Shown piece by piece: positions 1-10,292 of a stretch of 10,292 bases of DNA. This stretch comes from a virus. Lineage: Duplodnaviria > Heunggongvirae > Uroviricota > Caudoviricetes. Each line of letters starts with the position of its first letter. The first letter of the stretch is position 1. Where the stretch lies: the IMG/VR virus record IMGVR_UViG_2681813316_000013, positions 1-10,292 of that record; one strand, 5' to 3'. The position numbers and the translations under genes are program-made. The notes under the pieces were generated by a model that had not been told where the DNA came from, searched no databases, and saw nothing but the letters and a program-made list of their open reading frames with translations.

Positions 1-469
1 TGCTGCTATTGGTGGTGGGGCTGTTGCCATAGCGTCTGTGCTCATCACTGGTCCGAGTGGTGACGATGGCCTGGAAGGTGTCAGCTACATACCATACGAA
101 GATATCGTTGGCGTATGGACTGTATGTCACGGACACACCGGAAAAGACATCATGCCCGGTAAAACGTATACCGAAGCAGAATGCAAAGCCCTCCTGAATA
201 AAGACCTTGCCACGGTCGCCAGACAAATAAACCCGTACATCAACGTCGATATACCGGAAACAACGCGCGGCGCTCTTTACTCGTTCGTTTACAACGTGGG
301 CGCTGGCAATTTCAGAACATCGACGCTTCTTCGCAAAATAAACCAGGGCGATATCAAAGGCGCATGTGATCAGCTACGGCGCTGGACATACGCTGGCGGT
401 AAGCAATGGAAAGGGCTGATGACTCGCCGTGAGATTGAGCGTGAAGTCTGTTTGTGGGGGCAACAATGA
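1..469 (+). CDS. R: SAR endolysin (phage lysozyme, T4-lysozyme-like GH24 family), 5'-partial; reading frame phase starts at position 2
   Basis: Frame is open from the window edge to TGA 467-469. Translation ...[49 protein letters not shown]... has a Gly/Ala-rich signal-anchor-release segment followed by a lysozyme core with E-8aa-D-5aa-T spacing (LEG...YEDIVGVWT) as in T4 lysozyme E11/D20/T26 and phage 21 R. The true start lies upstream of the window. Confidence 0.9.
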
Positions 470-903
470 GCAGAGTAACCGCGATTATCTACGTTCTGGT
501 CATCTGCCTCATCGTCTGCCTTTCATGGGCTGTTAATCATTACCGTGATAACGCCATCGCCTACAAAGAGCAGCGCGATAAAGCCACATCCATCATCGCT
601 GATATGCAGAAGCGGCAACGTGATGTAGCAGAACTTGACGCCAGATACACAAAGGAGCTTGCTGATGCTAATGCGACTATCGAAAGTCTCCGTGCTGATG
701 TTTCTGCTGGGCGTAAGCGCCTGCAAGTCGCCGCCACCTGTGCAAAGTCAACGACCGGAGCCAGCGGCATGGGCAATGGAGAAACCCTAGGACTTACAGC
801 AGATGCTGAACTCAATTATTACCGTCTCCGAAGTGGAATCGACAGGATAACCGCGCAGGTTAACTACTTGCAGGAGTACATTAGGACGCAATGCCTTCGA
901 TGA
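466..903 (+). CDS. Rz: Rz-like inner-membrane spanin (i-spanin)
   Basis: ATG 466-468 overlaps the R stop (ATGA). N-terminal TM segment ([20 protein letters not shown]) followed by a charged, coiled-coil-like periplasmic region, immediately downstream of the endolysin gene. The ORF track's GTG start at 454 is judged less likely. Confidence 0.85.
665..790 (+). CDS. Rz1: Rz1-like outer-membrane lipoprotein spanin (o-spanin), embedded in the +1 frame of Rz
   Basis: AAGGAG at 651-656 lies 8 nt before ATG 665. Translation [41 protein letters not shown] has a signal peptide with a lipobox-like VSAC and a short Pro-rich mature part; stop TAG 788-790. Fully nested inside Rz, the classic Rz/Rz1 arrangement. 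Alternative start ATG 671. Confidence 0.65.
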
Positions 904-975
904 TAGCGATAATTTTCCCATTATCTTTTATATGCGTGATTTTAGTTAGTTTTAGTCGCAACACGAATAAAACAG

Positions 976-1002
976 AGAACCACCCGCTATACGAGTGGTT
1001 CT
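976..1002. terminator. Convergent (bidirectional) terminator-like hairpin between Rz and a minus-strand ORF
   Basis: 8-bp stem AGAACCAC (976-983) / GTGGTTCT (995-1002) with an 11-nt loop. On the minus strand it is followed by CTGTTTTATTCG (good U-tract) and begins 17 nt after the stop of the minus ORF 1020-1250. On the plus strand the downstream tract (GATTTACACTTTT) is weaker. Confidence 0.4.
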
Positions 1003-1019
1003 GATTTACACTTTTGAAA

Positions 1020-1250
1020 CTAAAAGCTAAATACTTGAGCAAGAACAGCTAACGCTGCGCAAAAAGCAGCCCGTTTATTCCATTTACTTTGTATTTCAAT
1101 GGCTTTAAAACAACCCAGTGATGAGAAACTGCCTTGTTCCGTTTTTGGTGGGTGTTCTTTGGAAGATGCAAAACATGAAATAATCCAAAAAATGGCGGAA
1201 AAAATTCCAAAAATTATTGAAGGCAAATGATGCTCTTTCAAAAACTCCAT
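1020..1250 (-). CDS. Hypothetical small membrane protein (76 aa), moron candidate in the position where lambda carries bor but unrelated to Bor
   Basis: 76-codon ORF with a true ATG start (complement of 1248-1250) in roughly 40% GC DNA. Predicted TM helix (PSIIFGIFSAIFWIISCF) and hydrophobic C-terminus (AAFCAALAVLAQVF). Followed on its own strand by the hairpin plus U-tract at 976-1002. Only a weak SD (GAGAG); no family recognised. Confidence 0.35.
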   Translation of the reverse strand: MEFLKEHHLPSIIFGIFSAIFWIISCFASSKEHPPKTEQGSFSSLGCFKAIEIQSKWNKRAAFCAALAVLAQVFSF

Positions 1251-1862
1251 GACTTAACTCTCTTAAAAGTTGCTAAACATCGCTCGCAAACAAGAAAGAA
1301 AAGTTCTGTTGCGAGCACTCCACAATTTAAACGCCACACAAGCAGCTATTAGGTGGACGGTTCCAAGATTGCTATCAACTGCCACCCGAATACCGTCAAA
1401 ACTTGACGTCCAACCAAGAATTATTGAGTTGTAAACTCAACGCAATGATCTGGTTGGTATAAATGTGACATATGTCATGAATCGACTAGTTGAGATAGTC
1501 AAGATGGGCTTGCTTGACATCATCACCACAACCGGAGCCAACAATGGCAGATTGCGTTACCCAGATTTGATAAAGGCATTTTAGCCTGACATAACTATGC
1601 ACTGTATCGTCGCCGTATTCCCGCATCAACAGAGACCACAGCCCGAGAGGGAGACTCCTCTGCGCGAGTGTGCGGGGATAATCAAAAACGATACACACCG
1701 GGGTTTACCGTGTTAACGGAGCGCGGCGTTGTCCCCTCATGGTCGCTGGTCCGGTGCGATGGTGGAAGAAACCGGACGATGTGTTACCTCGCAAACTCTG
1801 TTATGTCATGTGTCTGATTTGTGATTTAAGTCGGATAATTGTCATTGCCATTAAGCAGAGGA

Positions 1863-1904
1863 TTGATGACCGACAGGGCTGCATTGTTAGAATAAGACTT
1901 ATTC
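1863..1904 (+). promoter_or_regulatory. Candidate sigma70 promoter with extended -10 and overlapping palindromic operator upstream of the TonB-C lipoprotein gene
   Basis: -35-like TTGATG (1863-1868), extended -10 TGtTAGAAT (1885-1893), and a perfect 7-1-7 palindrome GAATAAG-A-CTTATTC (1890-1904) overlapping the -10 and predicted start site, about 22 nt upstream of ATG 1926. Confidence 0.3.
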
Positions 1905-1925
1905 TTATCTATGCCGGGAATAAAA

Positions 1926-2252
1926 ATGAAAAGAAATCTTCCGTTAATTATTTTGTTGTCTTCTTTGGTTATGGGCTGTACGCAACATAAAACAGATATG
2001 CCTCGACAGTTGGTTAAGGCATTACCACAATATCCGGCCTATGCCGCGGCAAATTATATAAAGGGACGGGTTGATGTGAAGTTTGATATTGGTGCTGATG
2101 GTACTGTCACCCGAATTGAGTTTATCCGTTCAGAGCCGCACCATCTGTTTGATGAGCAGGTTGTAAAGGCGATGGCAAAATGGCGATTTGAGAAGGACAA
2201 GCCGCGTAAAGGCGTGAAGAAAACATTTATCTTTAGTCCTTCAGCACCCTGA
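1926..2252 (+). CDS. Lipoprotein with TonB C-terminal domain (free TonB-CTD, no TonB N-terminal anchor or Pro-rich spacer)
   Basis: Translation MKRNLPLIILLSSLVMGC/TQHK... has a signal peptide with lipobox-like VMGC and +2 Thr. The mature part ...PQYPAYAAANYIKGRVDVKFDIGADGTVTRIEFIRSEPHHLFDEQVVKAMAKWRFEKDKPRKGVKKTFIFSP matches E. coli TonB C-domain motifs (YPxxA...G.V.VKFD...DG.V...P...F...V..AM..WR.E..KP..G) as I recall them. Alternative start ATG 1911. Confidence 0.8.
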   Translation: MKRNLPLIILLSSLVMGCTQHKTDMPRQLVKALPQYPAYAAANYIKGRVDVKFDIGADGTVTRIEFIRSEPHHLFDEQVVKAMAKWRFEKDKPRKGVKKTFIFSPSAP

Positions 2253-2711
2253 TTATTTTATCAGAAGTTAATTATCACTCTGTTGCTATTCAGTACATCC
2301 CTGCAGGGTAAAGTCTTGTTTCGCCGGATATGAAGATGAAATATTGTTAGAAGACAGTAGCTACCGGTTCCTGTAACCGAACGTTCATTTCTCGTTATTT
2401 TTCATGCTGGCCGGGCGCAGGTGCTTTGCATCTGTTGCCAGCCTTCTCCTGCAGGCTTCAATAACCCATGCCGAAAAATTACCCGATCCCTTACGTTCAA
2501 GGGCAATATGGATTTGATTAATCATCTGGTTTGGGAAGCTTTATTTTTTGATGACATTGTGTTTTTCCGTGTTCAGTGCTGCTGATTTGTATTGTCTTAA
2601 GATGTCTTTACGTTAAGTTGACACAGATCAATTAATGCATGACTTGGACAAAATTGATTATTTGTCGTGGTTTTATGGTGTACGTGGGATGTGTGATGGT
2701 ATTTATATAAA

Positions 2712-2726
2712 TGATAATTATTATCA
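2712..2726. promoter_or_regulatory. Fur-box-like perfect 7-1-7 palindrome TGATAAT-T-ATTATCA
   Basis: TGATAATTATTATCA is a perfect inverted repeat. The enclosing 19-mer ATAAATGATAATTATTATC (2707-2725) matches the classical Fur consensus GATAATGATAATCATTATC at 15/19 positions. It lies 37 bp upstream of cosN in AT-rich DNA; the target gene is unclear. Confidence 0.3.
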
Positions 2727-2762
2727 TTTATTGGGTCCTTTCCGGCGATCCGGCAGGCTACG

Positions 2763-2774
2763 GGGCGGCGACCT
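2763..2774 (+). other. cosN: cosN, cohesive-end nicking site of the phage genome (lambda / phage 21 type 12-nt cohesive end)
   Basis: GGGCGGCGACCT at 2763-2774 followed by CGCGGGTTTTCGCTATTTATGAAAATTTTCCGG, which matches the lambda left end as I recall it. It sits about 195 bp upstream of the small terminase start, the same spacing as lambda cosN to Nu1. Confidence 0.85.
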
Positions 2775-2810
2775 CGCGGGTTTTCGCTATTTATGAAAAT
2801 TTTCCGGGAT

Positions 2811-2915
2811 CCATGTCCGGTTTCTCTTCAAGTTAACTATATGAAAAATATAAAAACAGGTCTTCTGTGAACCGGACATGAACAAAAAACAGACATGTAA
2901 ACCGGACATGACCGG
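2811..2915 (+). repeat. cosB: cosB-like region: three copies of a CCGGACATG element (candidate small-terminase binding sites R3/R2/R1) separated by an AT-rich spacer
   Basis: CATGTCCGG (2812-2820, inverted), AACCGGACATG (2870-2880) and AACCGGACATG (2900-2910, followed by ACCGG), plus a partial GACATG at 2892-2897. The A/T-rich stretch 2821-2860 between first and second copy is where an IHF-type bend site would be expected. All lie between cosN and the small terminase gene. Confidence 0.6.
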
Positions 2916-2957
2916 TTTTGTTGTGATTGTGAGGTGAGAGTTTTTGCGAGGTGAGGA

Positions 2958-3467
2958 GTGGCTACGCAGACTGAAGTTGCCAGGCATTTAAGTCTGACCG
3001 ATCGCCAGCTTCGCAGATTGCAGAAATTGCCGGGTGCCCCGATATCGAATAAGCGAGGGCAACTGGATCTGGATGCCTGGCGCGATTTTTACATATCGTA
3101 TCTGAGGAGAAGTAAAAACGATGTGCCTGATGGCGATAGCGAAGACGACTATGAGGAGAAATTGCTTATTGCCAGATGGGAACTGACAGCAGAACAGGCT
3201 GTTACACAGCAGTTAAAAAATGAGGTGTCAAAAGGAAAACTTATTGACACCGGGTTCTGTATTTTTGCCCTCAGTAAGCTGGCAATGGCGTTATCCAGTA
3301 CGCTTGATTCCATCCCTTTATCCATGCAGCGACAGTTTTCTGATTTAACACCGCGCCATCTTGACCATCTGAAAACCCTTATTGCTAAGGGGGCAAATCA
3401 GTGTGCGCGGGCAGGGGATAAATTACCGGATTTACTCGATGAATATATCAGAGCAACAACTGAATAA
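2958..3467 (+). CDS. nu1: Terminase small subunit (Nu1 family)
   Basis: GTG start at 2958, with GAGG at 2948-2951 six nt upstream. Translation aligns with lambda Nu1, especially the C-terminal two-thirds (…TGFCIFALSKLA…LDSIPLSMQRQFSDL…HLDHLK…LPDLLDEYI…). The N-terminal DNA-binding region is diverged. Stop TAA 3465-3467 overlaps the large terminase start. Confidence 0.9.
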   Translation: MATQTEVARHLSLTDRQLRRLQKLPGAPISNKRGQLDLDAWRDFYISYLRRSKNDVPDGDSEDDYEEKLLIARWELTAEQAVTQQLKNEVSKGKLIDTGFCIFALSKLAMALSSTLDSIPLSMQRQFSDLTPRHLDHLKTLIAKGANQCARAGDKLPDLLDEYIRATTE

Positions 3468-5367
3468 TATGATGGCTGCCGTTTCGGTTGCGCTGCAGCC
3501 TCTGGTCAGGGTTGTACCAATGACGGCAGTTGAATGGGCTGATCAAAATTATTATCTGCCTAAAGAATCTTCATATGGTGAGGGAGAATGGAAAACGCTG
3601 CCATTCCAGATCGCCATTATGAACTGTATGGGTAACGACCAGGTTCGCACGGTTAACCTGATTAAATCTGCCCGTGTTGGCTATACAAAGATGTTGCTGG
3701 GGGTGGTCGGGTATTTTATTGAGCATAAATCCCGAAACAGTCTGCTTTTTCAGCCCACGGATTCTGCCGCTGAAGATTTTATGAAGTCTCACGTGGAGGC
3801 GACGATTCGGAACGTGCCATGCCTGAAAGACCTTTCCCCATGGCTGGGGCGTAAACATCGTGACAATACTCTCACGCTGAAACGCTTTTCATCGGGCGTC
3901 GGTTTCTGGTGCCTGGGCGGCGCTGCCGCCAAAAACTACCGTGAAAAATCCGTGGACGTGGTCTGCTATGACGAACTTTCCTCGTTCGAGCCGGATGTCG
4001 AAAAAGAGGGCTCGCCAACCCTGCTGGGGGATAAGCGTATTGAGGGGTCGGTGTGGCCAAAATCCATTCGCGGCTCGACGCCTAAAATCAAAGGCACCTG
4101 CCAGATCGAAAAAGCCGCTAACGAGTCGGCGCATTTTATGCGTTTTTATGTGCCCTGCCCGCACTGTGGGGAGGAGCAGTATCTGAAATTTGGCGATGAG
4201 TCCACGCCTTTTGGGCTTAAATGGGAGAAGGACAGCCCTGAAAGTGTTTTCTACCTCTGTGAACATCATGGCTGCGTGATCCATCAGTCTGAACTGGACC
4301 AGAGCAACGGGCGGTGGATCTGTGAAAACACGGGCATGTGGACCCGTGACGGTCTGACGTTTTTCAGCGCCCGGGGTGATGAAATTCCGCCGCCGCGCTC
4401 CATCACGTTCCATATCTGGACGGCGTACAGTCCGTTCACCACCTGGGTACAGATTGTCTATGACTGGCTGGATGCACTGAAAGATCCCAACGGCCTGAAA
4501 ACCTTTGTGAACACCACGCTGGGCGAGACCTGGGAAGAGGCCGTGGGCGAAAAACTCGATCACCAGGTACTGATGGATAAGGTGGTGCGTTACACGGCGG
4601 CGGTGCCTGCCCGGGTGGTTTATCTGACGGCGGGCATTGACTCGCAGCGAAACCGTTTTGAGATGTATGTCTGGGGATGGGCTCCGGGAGAGGAAGCCTT
4701 TCTGGTGGATAAAATCATCATTATGGGGCGTCCTGATGAGGAAGAGACGCTGTTACGTGTGGATGCGGCGATCAACAAAAAATACCGCCATGCGGATGGC
4801 ACCGAAATGACTATTTCCCGTGTCTGCTGGGACACCGGGGGGATCGATGGTGAAATTGTTTATCAGAGATCAAAAAAACACGGTGTTTTCCGGGTGCTGC
4901 CGGTAAAAGGCGCATCTGTCTATGGCAAGCCGGTGATCACCATGCCAAAAACCCGCAATCAGCGGGGCGTGTATCTGTGTGAAGTGGGAACGGACACCGC
5001 AAAAGAAATTCTCTATGCCCGTATGAAAGCCGATCCCTCGCCTGCGGATGAAGCCACGTCGTATGCCATCCGTTTTCCTGATGATCCGGAGATTTTTTCG
5101 CAGACAGAGGCGCAGCAACTGGTGGCGGAAGAGCTGGTGGAGAAGTGGGAAAAAGGAAAGATGCGTCTGCTGTGGGATAACAAAAAGCGGCGTAACGAAG
5201 CGCTGGACTGCCTGGTGTATGCCTACGCGGCATTACGTGTGTCCGTGCAACGCTGGCAGCTTGATCTGGCTGTACTGGCAAAATCCCGGGAAGAAGAGAC
5301 GACCCGGCCAACCCTGAAAGAACTGGCAGCGAAGCTGTCCGGAGGAGTGAATGGTTACAGTCGCTGA
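3439..5367 (+). CDS. A: Terminase large subunit (gpA family; ATPase and nuclease)
   Basis: ATG 3439 gives MNISEQQLNN..., colinear with lambda gpA (MNISNSQVNR...) over about 642 aa, including TAVEWAD.NYYLPKES, KSARVGY.KMLLG, GFWCLGG.AAKNYREKSVDV, GDKRIEGSVWPKSIRGSTPK, WTAYSPFTTWVQIV, VNTTLGETWE, KKRRNEALDC. The ORF track's start at 3382 is an upstream in-frame extension with no support. Confidence 0.95.
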   Translation: MNISEQQLNNMMAAVSVALQPLVRVVPMTAVEWADQNYYLPKESSYGEGEWKTLPFQIAIMNCMGNDQVRTVNLIKSARVGYTKMLLGVVGYFIEHKSRNSLLFQPTDSAAEDFMKSHVEATIRNVPCLKDLSPWLGRKHRDNTLTLKRFSSGVGFWCLGGAAAKNYREKSVDVVCYDELSSFEPDVEKEGSPTLLGDKRIEGSVWPKSIRGSTPKIKGTCQIEKAANESAHFMRFYVPCPHCGEEQYLKFGDESTPFGLKWEKDSPESVFYLCEHHGCVIHQSELDQSNGRWICENTGMWTRDGLTFFSARGDEIPPPRSITFHIWTAYSPFTTWVQIVYDWLDALKDPNGLKTFVNTTLGETWEEAVGEKLDHQVLMDKVVRYTAAVPARVVYLTAGIDSQRNRFEMYVWGWAPGEEAFLVDKIIIMGRPDEEETLLRVDAAINKKYRHADGTEMTISRVCWDTGGIDGEIVYQRSKKHGVFRVLPVKGASVYGKPVITMPKTRNQRGVYLCEVGTDTAKEILYARMKADPSPADEATSYAIRFPDDPEIFSQTEAQQLVAEELVEKWEKGKMRLLWDNKKRRNEALDCLVYAYAALRVSVQRWQLDLAVLAKSREEETTRPTLKELAAKLSGGVNGYSR

Positions 5368-5557
5368 ACTGCAGGCGCTGCGTCAGGCGCGCCTTGATTT
5401 ATTAACCGGTAAACGGGTGGTGTCTGTCCAGAAAGATGGTCGCAGAATTGAATATACGGCGGCTTCTCTGGATGAGCTTAACCGGGCGATCAATGATGCG
5501 GAGTCGGTACTGGGGACAACCCGGCGTCGCCGTCGTCCGCTGGGAGTGAGGTTATGA
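5351..5557 (+). CDS. W: Head-tail joining / head completion protein gpW
   Basis: 68 aa; LTGKRVVSVQKDGRRIEYTAASLDEL matches lambda W ([27 protein letters not shown]). Start overlaps the end of the large terminase gene; stop overlaps the portal start (ATGA). Confidence 0.9.
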   Translation: MVTVAELQALRQARLDLLTGKRVVSVQKDGRRIEYTAASLDELNRAINDAESVLGTTRRRRRPLGVRL

Positions 5558-7146
5558 AACGAACGCCTGTCCTGATTGATGTGAACGGCGTTCCGCTTCG
5601 TGAGAGTCTCAGCTACAACGGGGGCGGTGCAGGATTTGGCGGGCAAATGGCGGAGTGGTTGCCACCGGCGCAGAGTGCCGATGCGGCCCTGCTGCCCGCG
5701 TTGCGTCTGGGGAATGCCCGGGCAGATGATCTGGTGCGCAATAACGGAATAGCGGCCAATGCGGTGGCCCTGCATAAGGATCACATTGTCGGGCATATGT
5801 TTCTTATCAGCTACCGTCCGAACTGGCGCTGGCTGGGGATGCGGGAGACCGCAGCAAAAAGCTTTGTCGATGAGGTGGAGGCGGCCTGGTCGGAATACGC
5901 CGAAGGGATGTCTGGCGAGATCGACGTGGAAGGAAAACGCACGTTCACGGAATTTATCCGTGAAGGTGTGGGCGTTCATGCGTTTAACGGCGAAATCTTT
6001 GTGCAGCCGGTCTGGGATACGGAAACCACGCAGTTATTCCGTACGCGTTTTAAAGCCGTGAGTCCGAAACGGGTGGACACGCCAGGACACGGTATGGGGA
6101 ACCGTTTTCTGCGGGCCGGGGTGGAGGTCGATCGATATGGCCGTGCCGTTGCGTACCATATCTGTGAGGATGATTTTCCGTTCTCCGGGAGTGGACGATG
6201 GGAACGGATCCCGCGTGAACTTCCCACCGGGCGTCCGGCCATGCTGCATATTTTCGAGCCGGTGGAGGACGGGCAGACCCGTGGGGCCAACCAGTTTTAC
6301 AGCGTCATGGAACGGCTGAAGATGCTCGATTCCCTGCAGGCAACACAGCTTCAGTCGGCCATTGTGAAAGCCATGTATGCAGCGACGATTGAAAGTGACC
6401 TTGATACCGAAAAGGCCTTTGAATATATCGCCGGTGCGCCGCAGGGGCAGAAGGATAATCCGCTTATTAATATTCTGGAGAAGTTCTCCAGCTGGTATGA
6501 CACGAATAACGTGACGCTGGGTGGTGTCAAAATTCCGCACCTTTTCCCCGGGGATGATCTGAAACTACAGACTGCGCAGGATTCAGACAATGGATTTTCG
6601 GCGCTTGAACAGGCGCTGCTGCGGTATATCGCCGCCGGTCTTGGCGTTTCCTACGAACAGTTGTCCCGTGATTACTCGAAGGTCAGTTATTCAAGTGCCA
6701 GGGCCTCTGCCAATGAGTCGTGGCGCTATTTTATGGGGCGGCGAAAATTTATTGCGGCCCGGCTGGCCACGCAGATGTTTTCCTGCTGGCTGGAAGAGGC
6801 ACTTCTTCGGGGGATTATCCGTCCGCCACGGGCGCGTTTTGATTTTTATCAGGCGCGATCAGCCTGGTCACGGGCAGAGTGGATTGGTGCCGGAAGAATG
6901 GCCATTGACGGGCTCAAGGAGGTTCAGGAATCGGTGATGCGCATTGAGGCCGGACTGAGCACGTATGAGAAAGAGCTGGCGCTGATGGGCGAGGATTATC
7001 AGGACATTTTCCGCCAGCAGGTCAGGGAATCTGCAGAGCGGCAAAAAGCCGGACTCTCACGTCCGGTGTGGATAGCGCAGGCGTATCAGCAGCAGATAGC
7101 GGAGAGTCGCAGGCCGGAAGAGGAGACAACACCCCGTGAGACGTAA
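5554..7146 (+). CDS. B: Portal protein (gpB family)
   Basis: 530 aa, colinear with lambda gpB: GNARADDLVRNNG, EPVEDGQTRGAN.FYSVME..KMLD.LQ.TQLQSAIVKAMYAATIES, LQTAQD.DNG.S..EQ.LLRYIAAGLGVSYEQLSR, ARASANESW.YFMGRRKF, GRMAIDGLKEVQE.VM.IEAGLSTYEKE. Confidence 0.95.
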   Translation: MKRTPVLIDVNGVPLRESLSYNGGGAGFGGQMAEWLPPAQSADAALLPALRLGNARADDLVRNNGIAANAVALHKDHIVGHMFLISYRPNWRWLGMRETAAKSFVDEVEAAWSEYAEGMSGEIDVEGKRTFTEFIREGVGVHAFNGEIFVQPVWDTETTQLFRTRFKAVSPKRVDTPGHGMGNRFLRAGVEVDRYGRAVAYHICEDDFPFSGSGRWERIPRELPTGRPAMLHIFEPVEDGQTRGANQFYSVMERLKMLDSLQATQLQSAIVKAMYAATIESDLDTEKAFEYIAGAPQGQKDNPLINILEKFSSWYDTNNVTLGGVKIPHLFPGDDLKLQTAQDSDNGFSALEQALLRYIAAGLGVSYEQLSRDYSKVSYSSARASANESWRYFMGRRKFIAARLATQMFSCWLEEALLRGIIRPPRARFDFYQARSAWSRAEWIGAGRMAIDGLKEVQESVMRIEAGLSTYEKELALMGEDYQDIFRQQVRESAERQKAGLSRPVWIAQAYQQQIAESRRPEEETTPRET

Positions 7147-8641
7147 TCTTTCACACATTATTGCCGCAGCATTCAATGAACCGCTGCTTCTGGAGCCCGC
7201 CTATGCGCGGGTTTTCTTTTGCGCGCTCGGGCGCGAGATGGGGGCAGCAAGTCTTTCGGTACCACAGCAGCAGGTACAGCTTGATGCTCCCGGAATGCTG
7301 GCTGAAACGGACGAGTACATGGCCGGAGGTAAACGACCGGCCCGTGTTTACCGGGTGGTGAACGGTATTGCTGTACTGCCGGTGATCGGCACGCTGGTGC
7401 ACCGGCTGGGGGGGATGCGGCCATTTTCCGGAATGACAGGCTATGACGGCATTGTCGCCTGTCTTCAGCAGGCAATGGCGGATAGCCAGGTGCGGGGCGT
7501 ACTGCTGGACATTGACAGTCCGGGCGGGCAGGCCGCCGGCGCGTTTGACTGCGCTGACATGATTTACCGCCTCCGTCAGCAGAAGCCGGTCTGGGCACTG
7601 TGCAATGACACGGCCTGTTCTGCAGCCATGCTGCTGGCGTCGGCCTGCTCCCGACGGCTGGTTACCCAGACATCCCGTATCGGCTCCATTGGCGTGATGA
7701 TGAGCCATGTCAGCTATGCCGGTCATCTGGCGCAGGCCGGTGTGGATATCACGCTGATTTACTCAGGGGCGCACAAGGTGGATGGCAATCAGTTTGAAGC
7801 CTTACCGGCAGAGGTTCGCCAGGACATGCAGCAGCGCATTGATGCGGCGCGCCGGATGTTTGCCGAAAAAGTGGCCATGTTTACCGGTCTGTCTGTTGAT
7901 GCCGTCACGGGAACAGAGGCCGCCGTTTTTGAAGGTCAGTCCGGCATTGATGCCGGGCTGGCGGATGAATTAGTCAATGCGTCGGATGCCATCAGTGTGA
8001 TGGCCACGGCGCTGAACAGTAATGTCAGAGGAGGCACTATGCCGCAATTAACTGCAACGGAAGCCGCCGCGCAGGAGAACCAGCGAGTGATGGGGATCCT
8101 GACATGCCAGGAAGCGAAAGGACGTGAACAGCTTGCCACGATGCTGGCAGGACAACAGGGCATGAGCGTTGAACAGGCCCGGGCGATTCTGGCCGCGGCG
8201 GCACCGCAGCAGCCGGTGGCATCCACGCAGAGTGAAGCCGATCGCATTATGGCGTGTGAAGAAGCGAACGGTCGTGAACAACTGGCGGCAACGCTGGCGG
8301 CGATGCCGGAGATGACGGTGGAAAAAGCCCGCCCGATCCTGGCTGCTTCACCGCAGGCGGATGCCGGACCCTCACTCCGTGATCAGATCATGGCACTGGA
8401 TGAGGCAAAAGGGGCTGAGGCGCAGGCTGAACAGCTGGCTGCCTGCCCGGGAATGACTGTGGAGAGCGCCCGGGCTGTGCTGGCTGCGGGATCAGGTAAG
8501 GCAGAACCGGTCTCTGCATCCACAACCGCCCTGTTTGAACGCATCATGGCGAACCATTCACCGGCAGCGGTACAGGGTGGCGTGCCACAGACGTCAGCAG
8601 ACGGTGATGCGGACGTGAAAATGCTCATGGCTATGCCATGA
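7136..8641 (+). CDS. C: Prohead protease / scaffold fusion protein (gpC family, ClpP/S49-like peptidase domain with C-terminal scaffold domain)
   Basis: GTG start 7136 overlapping the portal stop. The N-terminal two-thirds aligns with lambda gpC (AFNEPL.LEPAYARVFFCAL, NGIAVLPV.GTLV, SGMTGY.GI...LQQA, GGQ.AGAFDCAD.I.R.R..KPVWAL, RRLVTQT.R.GSIGVMM.H, GV.ITLIYSG.HKVDGN, DAGLADELVN). The C-terminal third carries scaffold-type motifs. Confidence 0.9.
   Translation: MRRNLSHIIAAAFNEPLLLEPAYARVFFCALGREMGAASLSVPQQQVQLDAPGMLAETDEYMAGGKRPARVYRVVNGIAVLPVIGTLVHRLGGMRPFSGMTGYDGIVACLQQAMADSQVRGVLLDIDSPGGQAAGAFDCADMIYRLRQQKPVWALCNDTACSAAMLLASACSRRLVTQTSRIGSIGVMMSHVSYAGHLAQAGVDITLIYSGAHKVDGNQFEALPAEVRQDMQQRIDAARRMFAEKVAMFTGLSVDAVTGTEAAVFEGQSGIDAGLADELVNASDAISVMATALNSNVRGGTMPQLTATEAAAQENQRVMGILTCQEAKGREQLATMLAGQQGMSVEQARAILAAAAPQQPVASTQSEADRIMACEEANGREQLAATLAAMPEMTVEKARPILAASPQADAGPSLRDQIMALDEAKGAEAQAEQLAACPGMTVESARAVLAAGSGKAEPVSASTTALFERIMANHSPAAVQGGVPQTSADGDADVKMLMAMP
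8039..8641 (+). CDS. nu3: Nu3-like scaffolding protein from an internal in-frame start within C
   Basis: ATG 8039 is in frame with C and preceded by GAGGAGG (8028-8034). The product MPQLTATEAAAQ... (200 aa) corresponds to the Nu3 portion of lambda C/Nu3 and contains the RIMGIL..EEA.GRE-type motif. Confidence 0.55.
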   Translation: MPQLTATEAAAQENQRVMGILTCQEAKGREQLATMLAGQQGMSVEQARAILAAAAPQQPVASTQSEADRIMACEEANGREQLAATLAAMPEMTVEKARPILAASPQADAGPSLRDQIMALDEAKGAEAQAEQLAACPGMTVESARAVLAAGSGKAEPVSASTTALFERIMANHSPAAVQGGVPQTSADGDADVKMLMAMP

Positions 8642-8677
8642 AGTCAGTGCTGACCATCAACAGGAGGTTTTTACAAT

Positions 8678-9025
8678 ATGGTAACGAAAACCATCACTGA
8701 ACAGCGTGCGGAAGTACGTATTTTTGCCGGTAATGATCCGGCTCATACCGCCACAGGCAGCAGCGGGATTTCCTCGGCAACACCGGCACTGACGCCCCTG
8801 ATGCTGGATGAAGCTACCGGGAAACTGGTGGTCTGGGACGGACAGAAAGCCGGTAGTGCGGTTGGCATACTGGTACTGCCGCTTGAAGGCACAGAGACGG
8901 TACTGACGTATTACAAGTCGGGGACCTTTGCGACGGAGGCAATCCGCTGGCCTGACAGTGTGGATGAACACAAAAAGGCAAATGCCTTTGCCGGCAGTGC
9001 CCTGAGTCACGCGGCGCTGCCGTAA
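8678..9025 (+). CDS. D: Head decoration protein (gpD family)
   Basis: AGGAGG at 8663-8668, then ATG 8678. 115 aa with NDPAHTAT, TPLMLD...KLV.WDG...G.AVGIL, YKSGTF, AFAG.A.S shared with lambda gpD. Confidence 0.9.
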   Translation: MVTKTITEQRAEVRIFAGNDPAHTATGSSGISSATPALTPLMLDEATGKLVVWDGQKAGSAVGILVLPLEGTETVLTYYKSGTFATEAIRWPDSVDEHKKANAFAGSALSHAALP

Positions 9026-9082
9026 CACGTTATCAGGCCACCGCGGTGGCCTGACTGATTTCTGAATGAAAGGAACTGATTT

Positions 9083-10111
9083 ATGGGATTGTTTACGACC
9101 CGCCAGTTACTCGGTTATACCGAACAAAAAGTGAAATTTCGTGCGCTGTTTCTGGAGCTGTTTTTCCGCCGTACGGTGAATTTCCATACCGAAGAGGTGA
9201 TGCTGGACAAAATTACCGGAAAAACGCCGGTGGCGGCCTATGTCTCCCCGGTTGTTGAAGGAAAAGTGCTGCGTCATCGCGGTGGTGAAACCCGCGTGTT
9301 ACGTCCGGGCTACGTCAAGCCGAAACACGAATTTAATTACCAGCAGGCGGTTGAGCGTCTTCCCGGTGAAGATCCGGCTCAGCTGAACGACCCGGCCTAC
9401 CGTCGTCTGCGTATCATCACCGATAACCTCAAACAGGAAGAGCATGCCATTGTCCAGGTGGAAGAAATGCAGGCGGTGAATGCCGTGCTGTATGGCAAAT
9501 ACACCATGGAAGGGGATCAGTTTGATACTGTCGAGGTGGATTTTGGACGCTCTGAAGGAAATAACATTGAGCAGGCCGACGGTAAAAAATGGTCTGAGCA
9601 GGACCGTGATACGTTTGATCCGACGCATGATATTGACCTCTACTGCGATCAGGCCAGCGGTCTTGTGAATATTGCCATTATGGACGGTACTGTCTGGCGT
9701 CTGCTGAATGGTTTTAAGCTGTTCCGCGAAAAACTGGATACCCGTCGCGGCTCAAATTCACAACTCGAAACGGCAGTGAAAGACCTGGGAGCGGTGGTGT
9801 CTTTCAAAGGGTATTACGGTGATCTGGCCATTGTGGTGGCGAAAACGTCTTATGTGGCAGACGACGGTACCGAAAAACGTTATCTGCCGGTGGGCACACT
9901 GGTCCTGGGGAATACGGCAGCAGAGGGCATTCGTTGCTATGGTGCCATTCAGGATGCGCAGGCGTTGTCCGAAGGTGTGGTGGCCTCTTCCCGTTATCCG
10001 AAACACTGGCTGACTGTGGGCGATCCGGCCCGTGAATTCACCATGACGCAGTCCGCACCGCTGATGGTGCTGCCGGATCCGGATGAGTTTGTGGTGGTGC
10101 AGGTGAAATAA
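9083..10111 (+). CDS. E: Major capsid protein (gpE family, HK97 fold)
   Basis: AAAGGA upstream of ATG 9083. 342 aa colinear with lambda gpE: FTTEKV.L..I, YVSP.V.G.V.R.RGG, PGYVKPKHE, DPAYRR.RII..N...EE.AI.QVEEMQAV.AVL.GKYTM.G, KLDTRRGSNS.LETAVKDLG, YPK.W.T.GDPAREFTM.QSAPLM.L.DPDEFV.VQ. Confidence 0.95.
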   Translation: MGLFTTRQLLGYTEQKVKFRALFLELFFRRTVNFHTEEVMLDKITGKTPVAAYVSPVVEGKVLRHRGGETRVLRPGYVKPKHEFNYQQAVERLPGEDPAQLNDPAYRRLRIITDNLKQEEHAIVQVEEMQAVNAVLYGKYTMEGDQFDTVEVDFGRSEGNNIEQADGKKWSEQDRDTFDPTHDIDLYCDQASGLVNIAIMDGTVWRLLNGFKLFREKLDTRRGSNSQLETAVKDLGAVVSFKGYYGDLAIVVAKTSYVADDGTEKRYLPVGTLVLGNTAAEGIRCYGAIQDAQALSEGVVASSRYPKHWLTVGDPAREFTMTQSAPLMVLPDPDEFVVVQVK

Positions 10112-10119
10112 TCCGTGAG

Positions 10120-10148
10120 CGGGGGCGAAATGCCCCCGTGTCTTTTTT
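10120..10148 (+). terminator. Rho-independent terminator-like hairpin after the major capsid gene
   Basis: Stem CGGGGGC (10120-10126) / GCCCCCG (10132-10138), 5-nt loop GAAAT, followed by TGTCTTTTTTC. Begins 9 nt after the E stop (TAA 10109-10111) and ends before the FI ribosome-binding site. Confidence 0.6.
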
Positions 10149-10162
10149 CACAGGAGGCTGAG

Positions 10163-10292
10163 ATGGCAACAAAAGAAGAAAATCTGAATCGTCTTCGTCA
10201 ACTGGCTGGCCTGCTGGGGCGCGAGGCGGATATGTCGGGGAGTGCTGCGGATATTGCGCAACGTGTGTCTGAGTGGGAAGAGGAGCTTGCTG
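10163..10292 (+). CDS. FI: DNA-packaging protein gpFI family, 3'-partial (continues beyond window)
   Basis: AGGAGG at 10153-10158, then ATG 10163. Translation MATKEENLNRLRQLAGLLGREADMSGSAADIAQRVSEWEEELA resembles the lambda FI N-terminus (MTKDELIARLRSLGEQLNRDVSLTGTKEELALRVAELKEEL) and is in the correct position after E. Confidence 0.8.
   Translation, partial: MATKEENLNRLRQLAGLLGREADMSGSAADIAQRVSEWEEELA

Follow-up and report, generated by a model that had tools for sequence, protein, structure and literature searches.

What fills the low-GC interval between the lysis genes and cos of a phage-21-like Escherichia coli prophage, and do the genes found there work together? The window, meaning the whole stretch of DNA analysed, covers 10,292 nucleotides of a tailed-phage sequence (IMG/VR record IMGVR_UViG_2681813316_000013, positions 1 to 10,292), and the interval of interest lies at positions 904-2760. 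It carries two candidate genes on opposite strands, a minus-strand open reading frame (ORF) for a predicted membrane protein of 76 residues (orf76) and a plus-strand gene for a lipoprotein with the C-terminal domain (CTD) of TonB. The initial annotation had read the interval as a single inserted island and had speculated that the two envelope proteins act as a two-part exclusion system. Our preferred reading, to which we give a probability of roughly 60%, is that the interval is a lambdoid accessory ("moron") slot filled by a patchwork of recombination events, with a payload consisting of the TonB-domain lipoprotein acting as a decoy.

Accessory gene content varies at this one position. Among 5426 complete E. 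coli genomes, orf76 was present in 11 and the window's allele of the TonB-domain gene in 415, and 404 of those 415 genomes lacked orf76. A two-part system is unsupported because the two genes do not travel together, and orf76 and the TonB-domain gene do not form a system. Among related prophages, both envelope genes were found together in this one clone only. To the left of the TonB-domain gene lies bor, rha or neither of the two. In place of one island, the interval contains at least five modules of differing ancestry, with two dead gene fragments and one GC-rich element conserved across lambdoid phages. Both orf76 and the TonB-domain gene are under purifying selection, and the TonB-domain lipoprotein is most likely the functional payload of the stretch.

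Setting and anatomy of the Rz-cos interval

The ORF listing and Pfam place the interval within a late lambdoid region comprising lysozyme (38-469), Rz (454-903, Pfam Phage_lysis, E 3.9e-33), Nu1 (2958-3467) and the large terminase subunit (TerL, from 3382), with no large genes between the Rz stop at 903 and Nu1. In its lysis genes and overall layout the sequence resembles phage 21, and it belongs to a phage-21-like E. coli prophage. The prophage of enteropathogenic E. coli (EPEC) E2348/69 and ten other complete E. coli genomes carry the same interval at 99.7-100% identity. In the dog isolate E. coli Z1323PEC0011, the prophage is degraded further downstream and its large terminase gene is truncated. 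The location first proposed for the interval, between the lysis cassette and cos, holds, with the Rz stop at 903 and cosN at 2762-2773. The slot is also the one used by lambdoid lysogenic-conversion genes, since lambda, phage 21, Stx2 II and DLP12 all have bor here.

The GC content of 904-2760 is 41.7%, compared with 56.0% in the head genes (3468-10,292), and the minimum over all 1857-bp windows of the sequence starts at 875 with 41.4%. The claimed drop in GC and its limits were therefore well placed. The left flank (lysozyme and Rz, 1-903) has only 51.5% GC, not the 55-60% reported for both flanks, and the stretch is not uniform, with an internal spike of 58.2% at 1597-1780. The genes themselves are low in GC (orf76 36.4%, TonB-domain gene 43.1%), and the low GC of the stretch is due to its accessory genes and to naturally AT-rich cos-proximal DNA.

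Both predicted envelope genes exist as ORFs and have homologues. About 1 kb had been described as free of ORFs of 60 codons or more; mechanical ORFs of 70 amino acids (1486-1698, minus strand) and 83 amino acids (1739-1990, plus strand) are in fact present, and neither is a gene. A real 46-residue gene at 2385-2525 on the minus strand, of the DUF3950 family, had been overlooked. The description of the stretch as rich in palindromes was partly justified. Six terminator-like sites were observed against 1.9 ± 1.4 in shuffles, a modest excess, and the repeats are few, with six short inverted repeats in 880-2980. Palindromes are found at 976-1002 (a terminator-like hairpin), at 1889-1905 (8-1-8) and at 2707-2731 (12-1-12), besides the cosB repeats; several of the inverted repeats and terminator-like sites (the cosB repeats and the palindrome adjoining cosQ) belong to cos rather than to accessory DNA.

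The features of the interval, with the evidence for each, are as follows.

976-1002, minus strand: terminator-like hairpin with a T tail, 18 nt 3' of the orf76 stop
1020-1250, minus strand: orf76, a predicted 76-residue two-helix membrane protein (homologues, coding constraint)
1277-1563, plus strand: dead 5' fragment of a Terminase_2-type small-terminase gene, terS (tblastn, BLASTP, DNA alignment)
1536-1589, plus strand: remnant of the 3' end of an antirepressor-type gene, rha, last 17 codons and stop (tblastn with Rha of phage Lys8385Vzw)
1598-1776, plus strand: conserved GC-rich (58%) non-coding block (sharp conservation borders)
1866-1905, plus strand: promoter-like site of the TonB-domain gene with an overlapping palindrome (consensus match)
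1926-2252, plus strand: TonB-CTD lipoprotein, 108 residues (Pfam, TIGR01352, fold matches)
2385-2525, minus strand: truncated YlcI/YnfO (DUF3950) gene, 46 residues (Pfam DUF3950)
2440-2761, no strand: conserved AT-rich cos-proximal segment (right-end homology to lambda, DLP12 and phage 21)
2707-2731, no strand: perfect 12-1-12 palindrome, Fur-box-like (adjoins cosQ)
2732-2738, plus strand: cosQ, GGGTCCT (heptamer and distance as in phage 21)
2762-2773, plus strand: cosN, GGGCGGCGACCT (genome end maps to 2761/2762)

The closest known arrangement is the bor region of lambda, phage 21, DLP12 and Stx phages, which shares the position between Rz and cos, the non-coding block, a ylcI-type gene and the AT-rich approach to cosQ, as well as envelope lipoprotein genes expressed from the prophage. 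The window differs in having no bor, with orf76, the dead terS fragment and the rha tail instead. Lambda lacks the TonB-domain gene, whereas the window, phage 21, ev017, Perceval and some Stx1a phages have it. In phage 21, the order is Rz, bor, block, TonB C-terminal domain protein and cosQ.

We propose that the interval was assembled as follows. Its left module, orf76 with its own terminator, would have arrived jointly with the first ~98 codons of a foreign Terminase_2 terS. The rha tail follows, and then the block of ~180 bp, a constant part of the interval in Escherichia lambdoid phages, lambda included, with accessory genes on both of its sides. To its right come the TonB-domain lipoprotein gene with a putative promoter of its own, the truncated ylcI/ynfO gene and the conserved AT-rich approach to cosQ and cosN.

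The TonB-domain lipoprotein and its proposed action

The TonB-domain protein consists of a lipoprotein signal peptide, a tether of ~15 residues and a complete TonB C-terminal domain. By inspection rather than with a dedicated predictor, its N-terminus reads MKRNLPLIILLSSLVMG-C18, with the lipobox LVMG-C18; the lipobox cysteine and the preceding glycine are kept in all full-length homologues. The +2 residue is Thr here and Ser or Ala in homologues, and lipoproteins without Asp at +2 are usually sorted to the outer membrane. The protein matches Pfam TonB_C (PF03544, E 2.7e-15, 57 bits against a cutoff of 24.6) and TIGR01352 (57.1 bits against 27.1) and is 41% identical to residues 153-230 of E. 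coli TonB. Its matches among PDB sequences are all TonB C-terminal domains (E 1e-16), and the best fold matches of its AF2 model are 2gsk_B (TonB in the BtuB complex) and 2grx_C (TonB in the FhuA complex). Equivalents of the aromatic residues Y163, F180, F202, W213 and F230 are retained, as is the last beta strand (residues 98-104), the strand that pairs with the TonB box in 2gsk and 2grx.

Compared with E. coli TonB itself (PDB 1u07, 2gsk, 2grx), the CTD is complete and shows the same predicted order of secondary structure. The window protein lacks the membrane anchor and the proline-rich spacer, and so any link to ExbB/ExbD, and has a signal peptide and short tether instead. An assignment as a true TonB energy transducer was rejected on these grounds and on its profile score: the best hit to TonB equivalogs (NCBIfam PRK10819) reached 74.4 bits against a cutoff of 315 and covered profile positions ~152-240 only. 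An Rz-like spanin, as suggested by the label of phrog_1267, was also rejected; the window has its own Rz, and the match is to TonB_C lipoproteins. That family collects TonB_C lipoproteins under the name "Rz-like spanin", a label that seems to be based on position. No Bor family match was found for the protein in Pfam, and tblastn with lambda Bor detected bor in other loci and not in those with the window's arrangement.

The gene falls into two clades that are ~70% identical. Clade 1 comprises this prophage, several Stx1a phages and the 415 E. coli genomes, and clade 2 comprises phage 21, ev017 and Perceval. Between the window and phage 21 copies, 36 codons differ synonymously only and 32 non-synonymously, with 23/18/50 differences at the three codon positions.

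A promoter-like site, TGTTAGAAT, lies at 1866-1893, 33 nt upstream of the gene. It consists of ATGACC, a 16-nt spacer and TAGAAT with an upstream TG (extended -10), and TGTYAGAATAAGAC from this site is also present in phage ev017, where the site is partly conserved. A perfect 8-1-8 palindrome, AGAATAAG-A-CTTATTCT (1889-1905), overlaps the -10 element in the manner of an operator, and the phage 21/ev017 clade lacks its second half. A Fur box was considered for this palindrome and set aside, as each half-site matches at only ~4/7 positions by eye and ev017 does not keep the second half. Consensus matching found no clear terminator for the gene. Together with the strong minus-strand terminator of orf76 (1002-976), the extended -10 site is a sign, at the level of consensus matches, that the two genes may be transcribed independently.

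Expression was reported for a homologue. In a lysogen of phage Perceval grown in LB, LF82_160, annotated as a "TonB fragment", was expressed 8-fold above the prophage background (PMC9928086, Table 1), and it was expressed along with other accessory genes of benefit to the host, such as sitABCD (PMC9928086). LF82_160 is 70.4% identical to the TonB-domain protein of the window. This expression table was the only literature that we found on phage-encoded TonB-like proteins.

From this architecture we infer lipoprotein sorting, TonB-box binding and an exclusion phenotype, and the TonB-domain lipoprotein is most likely a decoy for the TonB boxes of outer-membrane transporters. On this proposal, the lysogen would produce and export the protein, which would receive its lipid and reach the periplasmic side of the outer membrane, where it would occupy the TonB boxes of FhuA, BtuB, FepA, Cir and others and displace the real TonB. 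The lipoprotein could not energize transporters because it is not connected to ExbB/ExbD, so that those it binds would stay unenergized and the protein would act as a dominant-negative decoy. Phages that depend on TonB, group B colicins and microcins would then enter less readily, and iron uptake would suffer to some degree. Taken alone, the step to an exclusion phenotype falls somewhat short of even odds.

Two kinds of known protein resemble the proposed decoy. Artificial periplasmic TonB fragments, which likewise place the CTD in the periplasm without an energy-coupling anchor, inhibit transport via TonB-dependent transporters (Howard et al. 2001, as summarized in PMC9841981). The window's fragment differs in being natural, phage-encoded, much diverged and, by prediction, lipid-anchored. 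Artificial fragments of this kind reportedly also lowered sensitivity to phi80 and colicin M. Cor (phi80, N15, HK022) and Llp (T5) are superinfection-exclusion lipoproteins, each acting on one receptor. They too are small, phage-encoded outer-membrane lipoproteins, and the effect proposed here is likewise a block of FhuA-type entry. They have no sequence relationship to the window protein, in which Pfam finds only TonB_C, and the proposed decoy would hit all TonB-dependent transporters, from the periplasmic side.

Several points weigh against a decoy. Promoter-like sites in the region number 5 against 5.0 expected, by consensus match only. Outer-membrane sorting is predicted only from the residue that follows the lipidated cysteine, and the AF2 model is only moderately confident (pLDDT 70, pTM 0.54). 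At the position of TonB Q160, a residue that contacts the TonB box in E. coli TonB, the window protein has Leu and the other clade Tyr, so that binding specificity may differ or be lost. A TonB decoy made constitutively should be costly to the host through reduced iron uptake. The protein matched no PADLOC model at E up to 0.1, and no functional experiment on this lipoprotein family was found in the literature. On the Q160 position, Q160L was reportedly isolated as a suppressor of TonB-box mutations, which indicates that Leu is compatible with binding.

The strongest competing account is that the lipoprotein is functional without being a decoy. It might bind peptidoglycan or another periplasmic partner, with a Bor-like role in serum or stress resistance, or it might tune the iron or virulence physiology of the lysogen. 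Conversion genes of the bor/iss type occupy the same slot, the Perceval homologue is expressed with host-benefit genes, and the Q160 equivalent is not conserved. We nevertheless consider this account unlikely, though a serious contender, as the whole TonB C-terminal domain is kept at 41% identity, including the aromatics and the last beta strand, and the protein shows no similarity to Bor.

A conserved non-coding block between Rz and cos

The GC-rich block at 1598-1776 is the most widespread part of the interval. In blastn searches it was found in 4140 of the 5426 complete E. coli genomes (76%), with 11,120 occurrences in all and as many as 11 in one genome, including 691 on E. coli plasmids. 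Two independent anchor motifs were used to retrieve it from IMG/VR and recovered it in at least 119 and at least 120 contigs, respectively. An alignment of 80 distinct versions showed that conservation begins and ends abruptly at ~1598 and ~1776, with unrelated flanks. In a scan of one genome per species, every match to the exact core was in Escherichia except for a few contigs that are probably contaminants. The lambda copy lies at ~46,873-47,040, between bor and lambdap78, the DLP12 copy lies between borD and ybcV, and the block is also present in phage 21, Stx2 II and phage-like plasmids. On the one plasmid inspected, the phage-like NZ_CP126957.1 (29,578-32,756), the block stands directly before the cosQ palindrome and a lambda-type terminase.

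At all 119 loci examined, the block lies between Rz and cos in the orientation of the late operon. Its left neighbor is bor, rha, orf76 or none of these, and its right neighbor is the TonB-domain gene, DUF3950 (ylcI) or Nu1 directly. In the shortest arrangements, the 3' end of the block is ~30 nt from the palindrome adjoining cosQ. Among the 12 matches listed, no annotated feature underlies the block. ORFs annotated over it elsewhere are the 82-residue C87 in Stx2 II and a 45-residue ORF starting from the 3' hairpin in phage 21 and ev017.

The block was not accepted as a gene. Its annotated ORFs disagree in frame between phages, its lengths (163-198 nt) differ by non-multiples of three, at most 16 of the 80 copies are open in any one frame, and its variation has no 3-base periodicity. 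We take the block to be a real element that is constrained and does not code for protein. The family phrog_6954, labeled "Rz-like spanin", collects an ORF read across the block, and this label too looks position-based.

RNAalifold and inspection gave a structure for the plus strand in which two long-range helices are combined with three hairpins. In two alignments, one of them chosen without the 3' motif as an anchor, 96.6-97.7% of cells were paired, compared with 32-57% for slid partners; the structure was derived from the same sequences that were used to score pairing, and these represent few independent lineages. Seven pairs show changes on both sides, including one in the 3' hairpin (hairpin C, with the stem GTCCGGT/ACCGGAC: GC 22, UA 7, GU 6) and one in helix 2 (CG 27, UG 6, GC 3). 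Of the G-U wobble cells, 239 lie on the plus strand and 8 on the minus strand. A covariation scan of every column against every other was discarded, as lineage effects swamped it with many apparent covariations, a warning on covariation evidence here. The late transcript probably includes the block as RNA, possibly with a defined structure on this strand, and the block might act on late-mRNA processing or stability or on events approaching cos.

As far as our searches reached, the block matches no element described before. Rfam 15 returned no match at E up to 1 over 700-3100, and a separate search of 1580-1800 gave only a chance microRNA match (E 0.86). A full-text literature search with two 15-mers of the block returned no paper. 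The AgvB and AsxR anti-sRNAs and the Pas small RNAs (sRNAs) of enterohemorrhagic E. coli and EPEC are located at the PR' accessory site (PMC4104026; preprint 10.64898/2026.05.13.724894). The block is found past Rz, and no U tract follows its 3' hairpin; such prophage sRNAs were rejected as its identity. For want of a U tract, the 3' hairpin was also rejected as an intrinsic terminator. A bor promoter or PhoP box within the block gave no convincing match by eye, and the block persists without bor.

The block could instead be a feature of the DNA, for example a patch of homology through which modules are exchanged, or a site associated with cos that terminase encounters shortly before cosQ. Its constant place between Rz and cos with differing accessory genes on each side is what a recombination linker would show, and its 3' end comes close to the cosQ-proximal palindrome in the shortest arrangements. 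The single-sequence folding z-score is only -1.05, and lineage effects alone yield many apparently covarying column pairs. Against this, stem substitutions are almost all G-U-compatible on the plus strand only, the hairpin C pair shows GC 22, UA 7 and GU 6, and the lambda block lies 1.5 kb from cos, which argues against a strictly cos-local role. A DNA-level function is thus quite possible, though the less probable choice. The boldest proposal is tentative and rather unlikely: the block would be a part of the late operon that is under functional constraint and has gone unrecognized, with a structured RNA as its most likely nature, and accessory genes would be exchanged around it. A second bold proposal is that the TonB-domain lipoprotein is a new kind of superinfection-exclusion or colicin-tolerance factor, a periplasmic decoy for the TonB boxes of all TonB-dependent receptors.

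Flanking modules and the biology of the slot

Upstream of the block, the predicted protein of orf76 has two hydrophobic helices and the conserved motifs SAxFWxxS and QxKWNxRAA. Its family comprises 10 cluster representatives at 32-75% identity, and it matches phrog_14357 (E 1.3e-6); no PADLOC protein model matched it at E up to 0.1. Compared with a Citrobacter sedlakii homologue, 19 codons differ synonymously only and 20 non-synonymously, with 13/12/26 differences by codon position, and this excess of third-position differences places orf76 under coding constraint. We regard it as a minus-strand accessory gene for a predicted membrane protein. Its terminator has a 12-pair stem with 6 G-C pairs and the tail CTGTTTTATT (inverted repeat I4); on the plus strand, the same hairpin (976-1002) forms a weaker version. 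Consensus matching found no promoter upstream of 1250. RefSeq is inconsistent at this locus, with a 43-residue plus-strand ORF in one genome and the 76-residue minus-strand ORF in another (E. coli Z1323PEC0011 and E2348/69).

In the C. sedlakii prophage, the orf76 homologue is placed and oriented as in the window: it lies past the lysis genes, upstream of a Terminase_2 terS and divergent from it, and this prophage has no TonB-domain gene. Window positions 1019-1537 are 73.6% identical to the Citrobacter locus. This match runs across orf76 and the 5' end of terS; orf76 therefore arrived as a unit with a foreign terS fragment. In tblastn, window positions 1324-1563 correspond to residues 17-98 of the Citrobacter TerS (55% identity, E 1.6e-20; E 8e-7 by BLASTP). 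The fragment represents residues ~1-98 of 187, contains an in-frame stop and a 2-residue gap, and is now dead. P22 has the same fragment as non-coding DNA between orf25 and orf80. At ~40,744-41,006 of P22-pbi, it appears as a decayed Terminase_2-type terS 5' fragment covering residues 1-89; it contains stops and a frameshift and shares 83% identity with the window's fragment.

Directly 3' of the terS fragment, 1536-1589 encodes residues 167-183 of the Rha of phage Lys8385Vzw (76% identity, E 0.002, tblastn). The DNA is colinear with Lys8385Vzw from window position 1546, inside the end of the rha coding sequence, and in that phage the full rha precedes the same downstream sequence.

At the right end, the 2385-2525 gene matches Pfam DUF3950 (E 8e-19, 67.7 bits against a cutoff of 25). 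It shares family, position and orientation next to cos with YlcI/YnfO of DLP12 and Qin, and it differs in lacking the N-terminal ~18 residues and in scoring below the NCBIfam cutoff. The window copy has 46 residues, compared with 64 in lambda and DLP12, and its N-terminal part was lost by frame disruption; the remnant MSSKNKASQT lies upstream in another frame (within window 2385-2600). On NCBIfam YlcI_YnfO_N, the window copy reaches 20 bits against a cutoff of 30 and the lambda ORF 37.6. That lambda ORF, at 48,109-48,303 of NC_001416 on the minus strand, is an unannotated 64-residue member of the YlcI/YnfO family that passes the cutoff. Judging from the sequence pattern, our guess is that the missing part is a basic arm and a possible ribbon-helix-helix strand. 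The DUF3950 protein had no match among PDB sequences, and DUF3950 proteins had none in PADLOC at E up to 0.1.

Conserved core sequence was found in the right-end ~320 bp (2440-2761), which is lambda-like and includes cosQ. This segment is 69% identical to the lambda right end, up to the last base of lambda, 74% identical to DLP12 and 84% identical to the last 55 bp of phage 21. Such homology marks it as conserved, naturally AT-rich cos-proximal sequence and not accessory DNA. GGGTCCT at 2732-2738 agrees with the annotated cosQ of phage 21 both in its seven bases and in how far it lies from the end of the genome. The lambda and phage 21 right-end alignments stop at their last base, which corresponds to window 2761-2762, and the adjoining GGGCGGCGACCT (2762-2773) is what we take to be the 12-mer of the lambda cohesive end.

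The palindrome ATAAATGATAAT-t-ATTATCATTTAT (2707-2731) matches the Fur-box consensus at 15/19 positions on both strands, a score reached in 5 of 500 shuffles. It is kept in lambda (16/19), DLP12 (16/19) and phage 21 (15/19), within ~15 bp upstream of cosQ, and abuts cosQ in this window. DLP12 nohB/nohD was reportedly recovered in a Fur titration assay, which the cosQ-adjacent palindrome could account for. Repeats of ACCGGACATG occur in both orientations between cosN and Nu1 (2812-2822, 2870-2880 and 2899-2918). These are probably cosB binding sites of Nu1 with non-lambda specificity, and only the C-terminal part of Nu1 matches Pfam Phage_Nu1.

Given these modules, it is very improbable that most of the stretch, including both ORFs, is inert recombination debris tolerated by the interval. 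Two segments (the terS and rha fragments) are clearly dead, the ylcI homologue is truncated and the RefSeq annotation of the orf76 locus differs between genomes. Both ORFs, however, have stayed intact over 25-60% protein divergence with third-position changes in excess, the lipobox is conserved in the TonB-domain homologues, a homologue of the TonB-domain gene is transcribed in lysogeny (PMC9928086), and the block is conserved with sharp borders across thousands of genomes. A single AT-rich, horizontally acquired island with two cooperating envelope proteins has next to no chance of being correct: both genes are low in GC (36% and 43%), both products are predicted to be envelope-targeted and the two lie within 700 bp of each other in 11 genomes, but nearly all genomes with the TonB-domain allele lack orf76, Citrobacter has orf76 without the TonB-domain gene, two dead gene fragments and a block conserved in phages with neither gene lie between them, and the left part entered with its foreign terS fragment.

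As first described, this stretch is an ordinary example of the cos-adjacent accessory slot, a new member of a well-known class, and reading it as a recombination patchwork averts the false lead of a system. It leaves two parts worth pursuing, the unannotated conserved block and the TonB-domain lipoprotein. If the block functions in late expression or packaging, a function has been overlooked in the best-studied phage, lambda. If the lipoprotein is a TonB decoy, a prophage would have a simple means of closing all TonB-dependent routes of entry together, to phages (T1 and phi80, for instance), group B colicins and microcins alike, and prophage carriage would be linked to iron uptake in EPEC and Shiga toxin-producing E. 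coli.

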